Shown here in pieces: positions 18,596-23,748 of a stretch of DNA of 64,000 nucleotides; position 1 is the stretch's first letter, and each line of letters begins with the position of its first letter. A model generated the notes under the pieces. That model did not search any database, had not been told where the DNA came from, and saw only the letters and a list, made by a program, of their open reading frames with translations. A program made the translations under genes and the position numbers. The stretch is from an uncultured bacterium (GTDB lineage Bacteria; Abyssobacteria; SURF-5), in contig CAZSKP010000018.1 in NCBI GenBank assembly GCA_964607485.1, positions 23,538 through 87,537 of the forward strand, given 5' to 3'.

Positions 18596-19393
18596 TCACA
18601 TATCCTTCTTTCTGAACAAAATGTATCCGATCAGCAGGCCGAAGCCGGCGTACAAGAGGGCATATATGAATAATTTCGTCATTCCCTGGGGCACGTATGG
18701 GTCGTCGTGTATGAGCTGATTCCGCAGGTAGAAGTTGCTGAAGTTGGGGAGGATCAGGTAAAACACCCTGATGATGGTCGACATCAGGTCCGAGGCGGCA
18801 TGTTCGCTCAGGTTTCTCAGGTAGTTGACCGAATGACCGACGATGTAGATGAATATTCCGACTATGACCGGGAGCGTCGCCGAAGTGGACAGCGTGGACA
18901 CCGCGAGTGCGAGGGCGGAAAGCACGAACAACTCGAAGTAGACGAGGAGCATCGCCTTGAACGTCACGAAGGCGGTCAGGGAAAAGGTGACTCCGGTCTC
19001 TTCTATGTATCGCCTTGGCTGCAGATAGAGGATGACCAGGAACAGTATTGACATCAAGACGATGTTCAGGATAATGGTGAGCTGGGCGCCGAGGTATTTC
19101 CCCAGCAGGTAAGTGATGCGCTTCATTGGCTTCGACAAAATCGTGTGGATGGTCCTGTTCTCGGTTTCCACGGGAATCAGGGCGCCCGCCGCGAACACCG
19201 CGATGAGCATTCCGAAAAAGGATATTGCGCTGAGGCACACGTCCTTCACCATCTTGACTTCTTCGCCGGGCGAAAGCACCGTCAGGAACGTGGAGCTCCC
19301 TATGATAAGCATTGCGAACAGCAGAAACGCAATGAGGGTTTTCCTCCTTATCGATTCACGGTAAGCGTTGAGCCCTATAACTATCGAATTCAC
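18596..19393 (-). CDS. ABC-2 type transporter permease
   Basis: Multi-TM; ETENRTIHTILSKPMKR...LLGKYLG; ends FRKKDM. Confidence 0.9.
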   Translation of the reverse strand: MNSIVIGLNAYRESIRRKTLIAFLLFAMLIIGSSTFLTVLSPGEEVKMVKDVCLSAISFFGMLIAVFAAGALIPVETENRTIHTILSKPMKRITYLLGKYLGAQLTIILNIVLMSILFLVILYLQPRRYIEETGVTFSLTAFVTFKAMLLVYFELFVLSALALAVSTLSTSATLPVIVGIFIYIVGHSVNYLRNLSEHAASDLMSTIIRVFYLILPNFSNFYLRNQLIHDDPYVPQGMTKLFIYALLYAGFGLLIGYILFRKKDM

Positions 19394-20352
19394 GCCGTCT
19401 CCTCCTTGACAGAGCGAATGAAAAGATCTTCCAAGGACTCTTTCTTGGGCCTGACCTCTACTATCTCCGTCGAGCTTGTCTTCAGAATATCCAGTACGTC
19501 GTAGATTCCTTGCTGCGCGGGCAAGCGTATGCTTGTGAGCCCGGTGTCACCCTCTTCGACACTGCATTTCATCGACACGAGCTTGTTTCGAGTGTCCTCC
19601 GCGAGGGAGGACACGTCTATTTCGACTGCACGGTCTTGCAGCACTAGGTCGAGCAGTCTGCCGTGTTTTATCAGCCTGCCGCGGTTGATGATGCCTACCT
19701 TGTCGCAAATCATTTCGACCTCGCTCAGTTCGTGCGAGCAGACGAAGAGCGTCTTCCCGAGGTTCCTGAGCTTTATCATGAGGTCCCGTATCTCGCGTCG
19801 CGCAATCGGGTCGAGGCCCACGGTGGGCTCGTCGAGTATCAACAGCTTCGGGTCGCTCAGGACCGCCTGTGCCAATCCTATGCGCTGGCGCATTCCTTTT
19901 GAATAATGCTGGACGAGACGATTGGCGGCATAGTGCATTCCGACAAGCTCCAGCGCCTCGTCTATCCTTTTTTTCAAGTTGGAGCCGCGGAGGCCGTACA
20001 GCTTTCCGTAGAAAGCAAGCACCTCTTTGCCGGTGAGAAACTCATGGAAATAGGTGCCTTCGGGCAAATATCCGATCTCAGTTTTCAGCCTGCTGTTGGC
20101 CGTTTCGGGAGCGAACACACTGTTTGAGGTGAACCGCTTCCCGAACAGCTTGCATTCGCCCGATGTCGGAAAGAGTATCCCGAGCAGAATCTTTATGGTG
20201 GTCGTCTTTCCCGCTCCGTTCGGTCCCAAGAAACCGAATACCTCGCCCTCTTCCACGCTAAGGGCAAGATTGTCCACCGCAGTGACCGTTCGCAGTCCGA
20301 ACAATGAGCGAAAAACCTTGGTCAGATCGTTAATCTCAATAGCTGTTGCCAT
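19390..20352 (-). CDS. ABC transporter ATP-binding protein
   Basis: GPNGAGKTT, YSKGMRQR, LILDEP, H-loop SH. Confidence 0.97.
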   Translation of the reverse strand: MATAIEINDLTKVFRSLFGLRTVTAVDNLALSVEEGEVFGFLGPNGAGKTTTIKILLGILFPTSGECKLFGKRFTSNSVFAPETANSRLKTEIGYLPEGTYFHEFLTGKEVLAFYGKLYGLRGSNLKKRIDEALELVGMHYAANRLVQHYSKGMRQRIGLAQAVLSDPKLLILDEPTVGLDPIARREIRDLMIKLRNLGKTLFVCSHELSEVEMICDKVGIINRGRLIKHGRLLDLVLQDRAVEIDVSSLAEDTRNKLVSMKCSVEEGDTGLTSIRLPAQQGIYDVLDILKTSSTEIVEVRPKKESLEDLFIRSVKEETA

Positions 20353-20479
20353 AACCTACTCTTCCCCATTCAAGACATCTCATTGTATTGCGCTTGCCGC
20401 TGCTTTTCGGTAAGAAAACCACTCGCGAGACATCGAGAGTATCGGAGTGATAACCAGCGGGCCCGCTTCCGAAGAAATT

Positions 20480-20508
20480 ATTATACAGCCTGAACAGCCG
20501 GCAGTCAA
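20480..20508 (-). promoter_or_regulatory. sigma70-type promoter of ABC operon
   Basis: TTGACT-N17-TATAAT. Confidence 0.75.
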
Positions 20509-20649
20509 GCAACTCGCGTGCGGCCTTTTATGCCGGGTTGCGTTCATAGACTCCTGGGCCTTGTCATTGCGAGAAACCGACGCCGCTGTGCAGGATTATC
20601 TGAAAATGGAGCATCCGATTCTCTCTGCCGTTCATGAAATCCCGCTTGC

Positions 20650-21150
20650 GCGACAATGATCAGGTGAGCACGGGAACGACAGAGTGAACATGGCAATGAG
20701 AGAGAAGGAGTGGCAATGCCGCCGGTCGGTCGCGGGCGAGGCCGCAGTGGGAAGAGGTGGCCGCGCAGTGTTGTTCACTGCATGAGGAGGATGTCGATGC
20801 AAGGGTTTGTTGCGCCCCTGACGAACCTCCCAGGCGCTGGGTCGAGTGTCACGGCCGAGGCCACACTGCGCTTGACGAATTGGGGGCTTTCGTCGGCGCC
20901 TGGGTGAGGCGTTCGGTTGTTCGTCGTTCTGCTTCAGCCTTGCTCTGACTGCCCTGTTGGAGGGGCGCAACGAATTCCTTGCACTATCTGCTCGTCCTCA
21001 TCAGGCTACTTGTAGGGGTGACACGAATATGCTCTGTTTCGCGGTCAGGATGGTATCTACCAACATGGGCAGGTCCACAAGGTAAATCATGTCATCCTTC
21101 CAGATATCCTCCTGTTGTTTGGTGATGCTGCTCCTGTCAAGGGCGGTCGC
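20650..21150 (+). ncRNA. Candidate large structured non-coding RNA, family unidentified
   Basis: Several nested long imperfect inverted repeats whose mismatches are G-U pairs on the plus strand; no convincing ORF. Confidence 0.5.
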
Positions 21151-21569
21151 TACTCTTCGCCGCCCGAGGATTTCGCTCTTTCGGCGTCTTGGTTCGGTTC
21201 GCTCTGAGCCTCTATTTGCCTGATAACTCGCTTCAGCTCGTCGTATTTTATCGGCTTGTAAAGACACATCGTCCCCTCGAGGCTCGATTGGTCGAGATAC
21301 TGATTTACATCTCCCAGCGCGGTAGTCAGGATGACGGGCGTGCGCGGCTTGAGACTCTTTATCCTGTTCAGCAGGTTGATGCAGGCGCTGTGCAGAAGGA
21401 ACAGGTCGGTGATAATGAAGTCGAATGTCCACCGGCTCAGCCGGTTCATGGCCTGTTCCTCGTTCGAAGCCACCACTACATCATATCCGTCCTCTCGCAG
21501 GATTTTCGCCAGAGCCACGAGCGCGTTGCGCTCGTCATCCACGACGAGGACCCTTTTCGACGATGACAA
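21150..21569 (-). CDS. Single-domain response regulator
   Basis: VLVVDDE, IITDL, ILTT, KP; probable TTG start at 21569 after AAAGGAG. Confidence 0.9.
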   Translation of the reverse strand: MSSSKRVLVVDDERNALVALAKILREDGYDVVVASNEEQAMNRLSRWTFDFIITDLFLLHSACINLLNRIKSLKPRTPVILTTALGDVNQYLDQSSLEGTMCLYKPIKYDELKRVIRQIEAQSEPNQDAERAKSSGGEE

Positions 21570-21642
21570 CTCTGCTCCTTTTTCGATGAATTGGGAATTT
21601 GCCGCTGTATCTGATTGACAACAATCCGTTCTTTTCGGACAG

Positions 21643-21658
21643 AGCATTTAAAATGCCA
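21643..21658 (-). promoter_or_regulatory. sigma54 (-24/-12) promoter
   Basis: TGGCAT-TTTAAA-TGCT with exact GG/GC spacing upstream of the response regulator; near-palindrome ATGCAAATTTTGCAT at 21832-21846 is a possible enhancer site. Confidence 0.65.
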
Positions 21659-22078
21659 ACTATCGAAGTGTTTCGGCAATCGGGAGACCTTATCTACGTA
21701 ATCCTCAGTATTCCAAATATTTATGTACATAACTGAAACCCCTGAAGAGCGGTGTTCTGCTCGCATGACGAGTTCTTCCGAGCGAGTCGCCGCGAAATAT
21801 TTGCATCATTTGTTTTATCATACCAAAACCCATGCAAATTTTGCATAGACACTCCATTTGTTTCGTCGCGGAGCATATGAATGAGAGCTAGGAATTGGCG
21901 TTTTTTTGGTGAAGTCAGAATTTCCTCAACGATCCCCATCGCGGCTCCTGAAAAAGTGTCTGTCCCATTTTTCCGGCGGAACCATCTGCGCGCCACACCC
22001 ACAGTAATCTCGGCAAAGGTGAAGCCGGAATATGAGAGACGCCCCCGGGTCATGGCAGGGTTTGTCGGGAAAAACAAC

Positions 22079-22108
22079 TTGCAAGACGATACTGCTAAAA
22101 GGTATAAT
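22079..22108 (+). promoter_or_regulatory. sigma70-type promoter of nfeD operon
   Basis: TTGCAA-N18-TATAAT. Confidence 0.55.
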
Positions 22109-22176
22109 TCAAGTAACTCACGCATGATATGTCGATTCGCTGCCTGCACATCGCCGGCCGAGCCTGGTGAAGGAAT

Positions 22177-23748
22177 TTGAGATTAATGTCACGGTCCCTA
22201 TGTTGCAGCAGTACTACATCTGATCCAGGTAAAGCATCCCGGCGTAAGAGCCGCTCCCGAGCACTGCTTCGATATTTAAGCCTCGTCCCTGTTCTCATTT
22301 TGGCATTGATTTTCCTGAGCATTGGCCTCGACCTATCCCCCGTCTCCACCGACGCGGCCGACGCCGGTCAGAACAGCACACTGGTGATTCCCATCCACGA
22401 TGTCATCGACCGTGGCCTGGCCTTCTTCGTCAAACGGTCGCTGGAGGGAGCCGAACGCGATGGGGCCGACTCCATAATCGTCGAACTGAACACGCTTGGC
22501 GGGCGCGTCGACGCCGCGCTGGAGATACGCGATGCCCTCGAAGCGAGCAAGATTCCCATAACCGCTTACGTGAACAAACGCGCGATATCCGCGGGCGCTC
22601 TCATCTGTCTGGCCACCAAGAGCATCGCGATGGCGCCCGGGAGCACCATCGGCGCGGCTACGCCTATCAGCATCGGCCCCGTGGGAGAAGCGCACCAGTT
22701 GAGCGAGAAGGAGGTCTCATATGTCAGGGGCGAGTTCCGCGCCACCGCCGAGAGAAACGGGCATTCACCGGTGTTGGCCGAGGCCATGGTCGACCCCGAC
22801 ACGGAGGCGCTCGTGGTCCTGGGTGGGAACGCGCCAAGAGTAGTGTCGGCGTCGGAAGCGGATAAGCTTCGGAAGCAGGACGAAGGAATCGACTTGGAGG
22901 TCGTCTCTCCCAAAGGGAAGCTGCTCACGATGACGGCCGCCGAGGCCGTGAAGGTCGGTTTGGCCGGCTCCATGCCTGCCTCGTCGGACAACCTCGTGCG
23001 TTCGCTCGGCCGCAACCCCTCAAACGTACGTGTGGCGAAAATATCATGGTCCGAAAACTTCGTGCGCTTCCTGACGCATCCCATCGTCTCCGGGCTCCTG
23101 TTGACGCTCGGAGTGCTCGGCATCTTTTTCGAGCTGCAGATGCCCGGCTGGGGACTAAGCGGCACGTTGGGCGCTCTGTTTCTGCTTCTCTTTTTCGGCG
23201 GCCACTACCTTGCGGGCCTCGCCAGCTTCGCCGACGTGCTTCTGTTTGCAATAGGTCTCGCGCTGTTGGCGCTGGAGTTGTTCGTTGTGCCCGGGTTCGG
23301 AATCACCGGCATCTCGGGATTTCTCTTCATACTGGCGGGCATCTACCTGGCGCTTGTGAAAAGGCCGATACCGGAATTCTCGTGGGACTATCAACTGCTC
23401 AACAACGCTCTGGGCACGTTCATCTTCTTCGCGGTTGCCGTCACAATCGGCGTCGTTGTCATCTGGAAGCTTTTTCCGGAGTCGAGGCTGAAAAGGCTGA
23501 TGGTGCTCTCAACGAGCGAAGACGCGAGGCTCGGCTACACCGCCTCGGAGAATCTCGAAGCGCTCGTCGGGCGGCCCGGCAGAAGCCTGACCCACCTCAG
23601 ACCCGCCGGCCGCGCGGTCGTCGCGGGCGAACCCATCGAGGTGCAGACGGAAGGAGACTTCATCGAGAAGGATAGGCCTCTTAGAATAGTGAAGGTTGTC
23701 GGGAATAAGGTGTTCGTGGCCGAAGAAAGGAACGTGAATGAAGGATAA
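22177..23748 (+). CDS. nfeD: Long NfeD-family membrane-bound serine protease (ClpP-class, TM, OB-fold)
   Basis: NTLGG, AISAGA (Ser), [20 protein letters not shown]; start uncertain. Confidence 0.9.
   Translation: MRLMSRSLCCSSTTSDPGKASRRKSRSRALLRYLSLVPVLILALIFLSIGLDLSPVSTDAADAGQNSTLVIPIHDVIDRGLAFFVKRSLEGAERDGADSIIVELNTLGGRVDAALEIRDALEASKIPITAYVNKRAISAGALICLATKSIAMAPGSTIGAATPISIGPVGEAHQLSEKEVSYVRGEFRATAERNGHSPVLAEAMVDPDTEALVVLGGNAPRVVSASEADKLRKQDEGIDLEVVSPKGKLLTMTAAEAVKVGLAGSMPASSDNLVRSLGRNPSNVRVAKISWSENFVRFLTHPIVSGLLLTLGVLGIFFELQMPGWGLSGTLGALFLLLFFGGHYLAGLASFADVLLFAIGLALLALELFVVPGFGITGISGFLFILAGIYLALVKRPIPEFSWDYQLLNNALGTFIFFAVAVTIGVVVIWKLFPESRLKRLMVLSTSEDARLGYTASENLEALVGRPGRSLTHLRPAGRAVVAGEPIEVQTEGDFIEKDRPLRIVKVVGNKVFVAEERNVNEG
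23641..23724 (+). repeat. 84-bp imperfect direct repeat, copy 1 (3' end of nfeD)
   Basis: Aligns codon by codon with 25739-25822. Confidence 0.9.

Follow-up and report, generated by a model that had tools for sequence, protein, structure and literature searches.

A family-specific candidate structured RNA that adjoins a receiver-only response-regulator gene and resembles CU-rich small RNAs

The DNA window analysed here is the whole stretch of 64,000 nucleotides. The element of interest lies in an 800-nt gap between two minus-strand genes, one encoding an ABC-transporter ATPase and the other a receiver-only response regulator. The main features of the locus are as follows.

19390-20352, minus strand: ABC-transporter ATPase gene, on one side of the gap
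20650-20793, strand not given: left flank with outer stems and domain I; not conserved, with no alignment left of ∼20794
20794-21125, minus strand (favoured as the probable strand): conserved non-coding core, the sole block alignable among nine orthologues
21150-21569, minus strand: receiver-only response-regulator gene (Pfam Response_reg, E = 1.1e-17), adjoining the core at every locus
21643-21658, minus strand: sigma54-type promoter TGGCATTTTAAATGCT, upstream of the regulator gene, with the motif at the corresponding place in 9 of 9 orthologues

The element was originally predicted to be a nested fold of ∼500 nt, closed by outer stems and representing a candidate large structured non-coding RNA of no known family. 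Re-reading of the sequence confirmed that all of the stems listed in that prediction exist where they had been placed. However, the conserved unit proved to be only ∼330 nt long: the block that aligns among relatives spans 20794-21121 (with the core extending to 21125), at 68-76% identity. The pairing of GCGAC (20650-54) with GTCGC (21146-50), thought to close the structure, is used by the minimum-free-energy fold on both strands but is located in the unconserved flank. The stem 20657-70/21129-39 and domain I (20683-90/20772-79) also fall outside the alignable block, and the TGAGGA/TCCTCA stem has its TGAGGA arm (20783-88) in the flank that does not align.

In a DNA search of 40 related genomes, the core was matched in 8 of the 9 further genomes that belong to the same family, and in none of the remaining 31. 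The phylum is represented by 11 genomes in the collection, 9 of which carry the core, and has no cultured model in these collections. A single match, the element itself, was obtained in the 4.7-Mb assembly, which disposes of a multi-copy MITE, and no match was found in plasmid and phage collections. A scan of genome contigs with a loose pattern returned at least 120 loci; among the matches listed, the only true homologue was L068, which is the same stretch as L009. A tighter pattern applied to metagenome contigs gave nine loci, none with the rest of the element, and two of these matched the element profile over the pattern itself only.

When the whole window was scanned with the covariance models of Rfam 15 at gathering thresholds, no match was obtained. 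Relaxing the search to E values of up to 10 added just two matches, regarded as noise, one to SAM-SAH at 14 bits and one to radC at 12.9 bits, where the threshold is 40 in both cases. RNase P RNA and 6S RNA were located on other contigs of the same genome. The reported lack of an RNase P, tmRNA, SRP or riboswitch signature is in keeping with this result. As far as the Rfam scans and sequence searches extend, the element matches no Rfam family and is known from one family of a small phylum.

Structure, wobble and codon tests were performed on the nine orthologous sequences, which are mutually related. Codon periodicity was absent in all six frames, with 269-304 substitutions per codon position in every frame, and no open frame was kept across the orthologues, stops being present in all six frames in the window and in its relatives. 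This agrees with the earlier statement that no credible long open reading frame is present. Two sets of short minus-strand frames were considered and rejected: a 29-codon frame starting at ATGATT, the start codon of which is absent in L002 and which is frame-shifted in L005, and short frames following GAGGAAGAG, where the frame changes between species.

Consensus folding of the nine sequences with RNAalifold recovered two long helices (P1 and P2) and two small hairpins, irrespective of the strand used. These elements, together with a further long-range pairing and domain III of the original prediction, are located as follows.

20797-20819, strand open: P1 arm nearer the ABC-transporter gene; 20 pairs; share of cells paired 90.6% (plus) and 91.7% (minus)
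20829-20841, strand open: first arm of P2; 12 pairs on minus with 92.6% of cells paired, 10 pairs on plus with 81.1% paired
20853-20862, strand open: hairpin P2a; loop CUCG (UUCG in L008) on minus, CGAG on plus
20874-20894, strand open: hairpin P2b; stem GACGAA/TTCGTC, conserved loop G5 on plus and C5 on minus
20893-20904, strand open: partner arm of P2, from duplex, wobble and pair counts
20949-20960, strand open: long-range pairing arm 1, CTGCCCTGTTGG, inside the domain closed by P1
20961-20984, strand open: partner arm of P1, from the consensus fold and pair counts
21047-21098, strand open: domain III, AGGATGGTAT (21047-56) with ATGTCATCCT (21089-98); weak
21060-21072, strand open: long-range pairing arm 2, CCAACATGGGCAG, outside P1

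Compensatory changes were counted over P1, P2, the hairpins and the long-range pairing, with 500 shuffles and partners slid by 1-3 columns as controls. Of the 450 cells of the plus alignment, 90.4% are paired; changes on both sides were seen in 14 of 51 pairs, compared with 6.5 ± 1.8 in the shuffles (none of the 500 reached the observed value) and 1-5 in the slid controls. The corresponding values on the minus alignment were 92.3% of 470 cells and 15 of 53 pairs, as against 6.8 ± 1.8 (again 0 of 500) and 2-7. Pairs with changes on both sides numbered 7 (plus) or 6 (minus) in P1 and 7 in P2 on the minus strand. The 22-bp helix (P1), the inner helix (P2) and its two capping hairpins, all of which had been recognized in the single sequence, are conserved and carry compensatory changes in the nine orthologues.

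Folding energies were less telling. For 20650-21150, the plus-strand fold had an energy of −202.2 kcal/mol, compared with −196.1 ± 6.3 kcal/mol for shuffled sequences (z = −0.96; 13 of 100 shuffles as good), and is not significant. The minus-strand fold was modestly beyond its shuffles (z = −2.57; 0 of 100 as good), which is a mild effect. For the core alone, the mean z over the nine orthologues was −1.8 on plus and −1.9 on minus; these values do not separate the strands, and the folding z-score was accordingly rejected as a strand test.

The segment CTGCCCTGTTGG is complementary to CCAACATGGGCAG save for one bulged base, and the resulting 12 pairs are formed in 97.2% of cells in the nine sequences. 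Both arms are nearly invariant. Since 8 of the 12 pairs show no variation at all, it is the complementarity of the arms that argues for this pairing. Because arm 2 lies outside P1, the long-range pairing would cross P1, and a pseudoknot formed by 20949-60 and 21060-72 is predicted. An extension of this pairing by CCTTG/CAAGG, assessed by eye, holds in 4 of 9 sequences and was rejected. Domain III is present in the sequence as described, but it is a weak helix: its duplex energies over the nine orthologues sum to only −50 kcal/mol and consensus folding does not support it. RNAalifold found no consensus helix in 20985-21125 on either strand, although blocks of sequence within this region are conserved.

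The sequence is also represented in RNA libraries. A search matched a small share of the sequence words in metatranscriptome libraries X1 and X2, which belong to two studies and are labelled as sediment. Six contigs from these libraries cover 20721-21164 at 90-95% identity; strand, ends and level are not readable from these contigs, and an RNA library may hold DNA. One contig reaches 20721, inside the unconserved left flank, and one crosses 21150 and takes in the 3′ end of the regulator gene. The lack of contig cover over the regulator and ABC genes was given no weight. With the Rfam searches blank, the sequence non-coding, the helices covarying and RNA-library contigs at hand, the core of that prediction, a candidate large structured non-coding RNA of no known family, stands, and the element is very probably a real RNA of this kind.

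The RNA had been assigned to the plus strand on the basis of a G-U bias in its helices. This bias is genuine in the window genome, where 6 plus-only wobbles and 1 minus-only wobble occur in P1, P2 and P4 (4 and 1 in P1 and P2). It is reversed across the nine sequences. When, for each sequence, the union of the plus- and minus-strand duplexes of each helix was examined, P1 was nearly balanced (7 plus-only versus 13 minus-only) and P2 gave 6 versus 18, so that P1 and P2 together contain 13 plus-only and 31 minus-only wobbles, counts that come from related sequences and are not independent events. In P2, A-C mismatches on the plus strand that are G-U on the minus strand are found in 8 of the 9 sequences. 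The earlier impression arose because the window itself is the exception among the nine, and the argument for a plus-sense molecule fails beyond this genome.

Further observations bear on the strand. The covariation term of RNAalifold was −1.49 on minus and +1.32 on plus. In a near relative found among the RNA contigs, the plus-only wobble of the window at 20838 is replaced by C-G, and position 20839 is part of a pair that is standard on the minus strand only. The loop of hairpin P2a reads C(CUCG)G or C(UUCG)G on the minus strand, which is of the YNMG type with C-G closure; CUCG and UUCG loops are stable tetraloop types. On the plus strand no promoter was found by a consensus scan of the window, as originally noted, and the printed orthologue flanks, read by eye, share no motif left of P1. 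The orthologues have no sigma70-type or sigma54-type motif in common, either on plus in the region left of P1 or on minus immediately right of the core. Most of the strand evidence that can be drawn from the sequences, namely the wobble asymmetry, the YNMG-type tetraloops, the conserved sigma54 promoter described below and the lack of a plus promoter, points to the minus strand, which is probably the functional one. On that reading the element is co-oriented with the regulator gene and not, as had been proposed, convergent with it.

The response-regulator gene probably starts at the TTG at 21569, which is preceded by AAGGAG, and its receiver shows the greatest likeness to the receivers of NtrC/ZraR-type activators. 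A homologue of the regulator is syntenic with the core in all nine orthologues. Both genomes of the phylum that lack the core also have no close regulator homologue (best matches of 36% and 34% identity). The suggestion that the gene is sigma54-driven was borne out by the motif TGGCAY-N5-(A/G)TGCW, which is present upstream of the regulator in all nine orthologues and on the minus strand each time. The distance from the regulator stop codon to the core is ∼25 nt in the window, and the two abut in L008. A consensus scan of 20200-21800 detected no minus-strand intrinsic terminator, in the form of a short GC-rich hairpin and U run after the regulator stop, and the consensus scan found no intrinsic terminator at either end of the element. 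With so short a distance and no terminator in between, the regulator transcript is expected to enter the core.

The flanking genes are both on the minus strand at every locus, although the downstream gene varies. In the window it encodes the ABC ATPase; in the six orthologue loci examined, it encodes a multihaem cytochrome in three, and UvrB, a membrane transport protein and an unknown protein in one each. Because the gene on the other side differs between loci, the element belongs with the regulator, and a role as leader or riboswitch of the downstream minus-strand gene was rejected for the same reason. The ABC operon also has a strong promoter-like site of its own at 20508-20480, which counts against such a leader.

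The profile of the element also matched short loci elsewhere in the genomes of the phylum, through which a family of small RNAs was noticed. A pattern search identified 25 such genes in 10 of 11 genomes, with 1-4 per genome, whereas the reversed control pattern gave none. The small RNAs share a layout in which a 5′ hairpin precedes a single-stranded, CU-rich seed (CTCTTCCTCATCAGGC or a variant of it), followed by a 12-bp hairpin bearing an invariant GGGGTG loop and then by a CUCUCCUUUU tail. The 12-pair hairpin has no broken cell in the 25 sequences, 4 of its pairs show compensatory change, and its wobbles occur on that strand only. Three subfamilies were distinguished. The 6 genes of subfamily A all share TGGATT and TATAAT-type promoter boxes, subfamily B has the sigma54 motif TGGCAC-N5-TTGC, and subfamily C has CTTGC and GATATAAT boxes. 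The family has no match in Rfam. A covariance model built for it (R1) matched 11 of 151 genomes: all 10 of the family and, more weakly, one of the sister family. None of the 140 genomes from outside the phylum was matched. The small RNAs appear to be phylum-specific, CU-rich and anti-Shine-Dalgarno-like; an assembled 16S gene, with which they might be compared at its 3′ end, is absent from all 11 genomes.

The part of the core that resembles these small RNAs consists of three boxes.

20991-21007, plus strand the small-RNA seed, minus strand its complement: seed box CTCGTCCTCATCAGGCT, near-invariant in the nine orthologues
21014-21023, strand open: loop box AGGGGTGACA, the terminator-loop sequence of the small RNAs
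21031-21041, strand open: tail box GCTCTGTTTCG, a degenerate version of the small-RNA tail CUCUCCUUU

In all nine cores, R1 aligned over its full length to the same place (20983-21041) and in the plus orientation. Scores ranged from 25.5 to 8.3 bits (E = 1.5e-4 to 2.5, with five of the nine below 0.05), compared with 71-85 bits for members in the family's own genomes. The seed, the loop motif and the tail are kept in these alignments and the stem columns are broken. The seed CTCTTCCTCATCAGGCT, the GGGGTGA motif and the CU-rich tail thus occur in the element in the same order as in the small RNAs. In contrast to them, the element is five times longer and has neither the 12-bp terminator hairpin, the stem being broken in the alignments shown, nor a directly upstream promoter of its own, as judged from the printed orthologue flanks and the plus-strand scan of the window. 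Judged by these alignments, the second half of the core contains a degenerate full-length copy of a subfamily-A small RNA.

The copy keeps exactly those parts that are single-stranded in the small RNA, and on the minus strand these parts are complementary to the segments that are accessible in the small RNA. Judged by invariant columns, no other stretch of the element is as well conserved as the seed, loop and tail boxes. At the seed box, the minus strand is predicted to form 12-20 contiguous pairs with the seed of same-genome small RNAs in 24 of 24 small RNA-element combinations. The pairing spans 14-20 nt for the 6 subfamily-A combinations and 12-14 nt for the 18 involving subfamilies B and C; shuffled controls gave a mean of ∼10 nt with maxima of 13-17, and the B and C values fall within this range. 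The seed box of the window genome has G where the small RNA has T, giving a mismatch in the proposed duplex. Loss of the stem with retention of the loop fits a pairing partner better than a paralogue, although this pattern does not prove the strand. RNAduplex energies for small RNAs against the whole core favoured the minus strand (−59 to −80 kcal/mol, compared with about −44 to −56 for shuffles, and with L147/L006 as an exception at −35.0 kcal/mol). They were set aside because the program allowed unrealistically large loops and the result merely restated the homology.

The best explanation of these observations is that the core is a family-specific structured non-coding RNA forming one unit with the sigma54-dependent receiver-only regulator gene. 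More specifically, and tentatively, the sigma54-driven regulator transcript may continue at its 3′ end, on the minus strand, into a structured extension that displays an anti-small-RNA site, as a sponge or target. The minus-strand RNA would be made as a 3′ extension of the regulator transcript, and P1 (20-22 bp) would close a domain holding the 12-bp P2 and the two hairpins. The 12-bp pairing of 20949-60 with 21060-72 would tie the upstream part of the RNA to the P1 domain and close a loop of ∼100 nt, carrying in order the complements of the small RNA's 3′ tail, terminator loop and seed. Through these the RNA would base-pair with the small RNAs, best with those of the sigma70-driven subfamily A, and as a sponge or small-RNA target it could couple sigma54 signalling to small-RNA activity. 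A role of the element towards the CU-rich small RNAs, as their sponge or their antisense partner, is, by the complementarity described, a possibility held with slightly more reserve than the 3′-extension model as a whole; it may capture a small RNA by means of a mirror-image copy of it.

A more elaborate version, and a doubtful one, would be a scaffolded anti-small RNA. In this design, a covarying P1/P2 platform and a pseudoknot-closed loop would present exact complements of the tail, terminator loop and seed, the segments that are paired within the small RNA having decayed. It would have originated as an inverted copy of a small-RNA gene, and a two-component/sigma54 signal would use it to switch off the whole small-RNA regulon.

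On the plus strand the module matches the small RNAs in order, spacing and orientation (helix, seed, GGGGTGA and CU tail). With this co-linearity it could equally be a same-sense paralogue. The element would then be a long plus-strand member of the CU-rich family, convergent with the regulator gene. Its 5′ hairpin would have grown into the P1/P2 domain and its terminator stem been lost, with the same seed, G-rich loop motif and CU tail directed to the same targets, for example Shine-Dalgarno regions, and with its 3′ end antisense into the end of the regulator gene. Consistent with this, the wobbles of the window itself favour plus, the region is G- and T-rich on that strand, the P2b loop UUGGGGGCU is like the loop of the small RNAs on plus, and an RNA-library contig extends past 21150 into the regulator 3′ end. 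However, no plus-strand promoter motif is shared upstream of P1 in the printed orthologue flanks and the window scan, whereas the small-RNA genes do have shared ones; the A-C mismatches of P2 on plus become G-U on minus in nearly all of the sequences; and a loop sequence kept after loss of the stem that presents it is easier to understand in a pairing partner. A plus-strand paralogue is, on balance, somewhat unlikely.

Alternatively, the minus-strand RNA could be a structured 3′ UTR in the regulator mRNA that acts only in cis, for example by blocking a 3′ exonuclease, ending transcription or binding a protein. The module would then be a remnant of an inverted small-RNA gene and would take no part in RNA-RNA interactions. 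The core abuts the regulator stop and the two are always found together, and this model draws on the same strand evidence as the sponge or target model; pyrimidine- or U-rich tracts after P1 on minus, seen by eye in several orthologues, would also suit it. Against it, the canonical terminator of hairpin and U run is missing, and the seed, loop and tail boxes are the best conserved in the element, which argues for function and not for a relic. A purely cis role is considered improbable.

It is very improbable that the element is not an RNA and instead acts at the DNA level (as protein-binding inverted repeats or enhancer sites for a sigma54 activator) or is a decayed gene, a small protein gene or a MITE, since, although the P1 arms form a long inverted repeat and a short minus-strand stretch, YLVDLPMLVDTIL, has some synonymous-looking changes, the element is single-copy and unmatched in plasmids and phages, has no frame open across the orthologues and no codon periodicity, shows RNA-type signals in its strand wobble asymmetry and its compensatory changes across a 141-nt spacer, and is present in RNA libraries.

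The favoured model, a 3′ extension of the regulator transcript with an anti-small-RNA site, has counterparts in part among known systems. The large structured bacterial non-coding RNAs curated in Rfam include OLE, GOLLD, ROOL, HEARO and raiA. The element is comparable to these in size class, in having long-range helices, in its unknown biochemistry and in its narrow phylogenetic range. It differs in being unmatched by Rfam even at the relaxed E value and in its ties to a single gene and a small-RNA family. Regulatory RNAs derived from 3′ UTRs are exemplified in enterobacteria by CpxQ and SroC, which are functional RNAs lying directly after a stop codon, on the coding strand, and produced from the mRNA's own promoter, as is proposed here; the element differs in being much larger and structured, and in that no terminator was found.

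Closer in the proposed function are bacterial small-RNA sponges and decoys, transcripts that titrate trans-acting small RNAs through a site complementary to their seed. An example is the sponge RNA reported for the quorum-sensing small RNAs of Vibrio cholerae (PMC9732341). The site proposed here would offer 14-20 nt of complementarity to subfamily A. The element differs in that its site lies inside a 330-nt covarying scaffold and mirrors the loop and tail as well as the seed, and its pairing is predicted. In cyanobacteria, crosstalk is reported between Yfr1 and Yfr2 (PMC6778093): widely conserved small RNAs have an invariant single-stranded motif that is flanked by hairpins, and a nearly complementary conserved motif occurs in another RNA family. 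The arrangement of a conserved single-stranded motif in the small RNAs and a near-complementary motif in another RNA family is shared by the present system. The two systems are unrelated in sequence, and the partner here, in place of a second small RNA, would be a large structured RNA that adjoins a regulator gene.

With the element, a candidate phylum of only 11 species-level genomes would contribute both a new large structured RNA and a new family of small RNAs. Should the sponge reading fail, it would still provide a clean, covariation-supported RNA motif fit for a curated family. If the sponge reading is true, the element would show how an inverted small-RNA gene can give rise to an anti-small RNA that a folded scaffold presents, and sigma54/two-component signalling would be wired to post-transcriptional control.

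The CU-rich small RNAs, a degenerate subfamily-A-like copy of which lies within the element, are a new family and have no Rfam entry. They are roughly 75-130 nt long and fall into three subfamilies, with sigma70-type promoters in two and a sigma54-type promoter in one. The search revealed 25 genes across 10 of the 11 phylum genomes and none among 140 genomes from other phyla. Covariation was seen in the terminator hairpin, the loop of which is invariably GGGGTG. The first three copies below lie in the organism's own genome, outside the window.

Contig C15, 70245-70307, minus strand: CU-rich small RNA
Contig C29, 25370-25432, minus strand: CU-rich small RNA
Contig C24, 66127-66189, minus strand: CU-rich small RNA
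Loci L145-L169: copies in relatives

In the unconserved flank of the element, the minus-strand sequence CTCCTTCTCTCTCATTGCC (window 20690-20715) bears a loose likeness to the subfamily-C seed, in this genome only.

Two plus-strand boxes within the element, about 20 nt apart, may resemble the 3' end of 16S rRNA.

21077-21085, plus strand: ACAAGGTAA, possibly 16S rRNA 3'-end-like
21106-21113, plus strand: ATCCTCCT, possibly 16S rRNA 3'-end-like

The putative likeness is to the conserved 3'-terminal region of 16S rRNA and its anti-Shine-Dalgarno end, and the minus-strand reading of ATCCTCCT is AGGAGGAT, a strong Shine-Dalgarno-like box. An assembled 16S gene was present in none of the 11 phylum genomes.

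The following features of the window lie on either side of the element and regulator.

20480-20508, minus strand: sigma70-like promoter (TTGACT, 17 nt, TATAAT; 11 of 12 matches)
21721-22149, minus strand: ORF of 142 codons, preceding the promoter of the regulator gene
22177-23748, plus strand: gene for a membrane-bound ClpP-class protease of the NfeD type, oriented divergently to the regulator unit

The strong sigma70-like site is upstream of an ABC transporter operon, which therefore need not rely on read-through from the element. On this minus-strand downstream side, a multihaem cytochrome c (Cytochrom_c3_2, Paired_CXXCH) follows the element in three of the six orthologue loci examined (L002, L004, and L005). 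The 142-codon ORF, having no match in Pfam or NCBIfam, may not be a gene.

The only sister-family genome (G010) contains one weaker small-RNA match (contig C123, 1028-1086, minus strand; 44 bits) but lacks both the large element and any close homologue of the regulator, which implies that the CU-rich small RNA may be older than the element.
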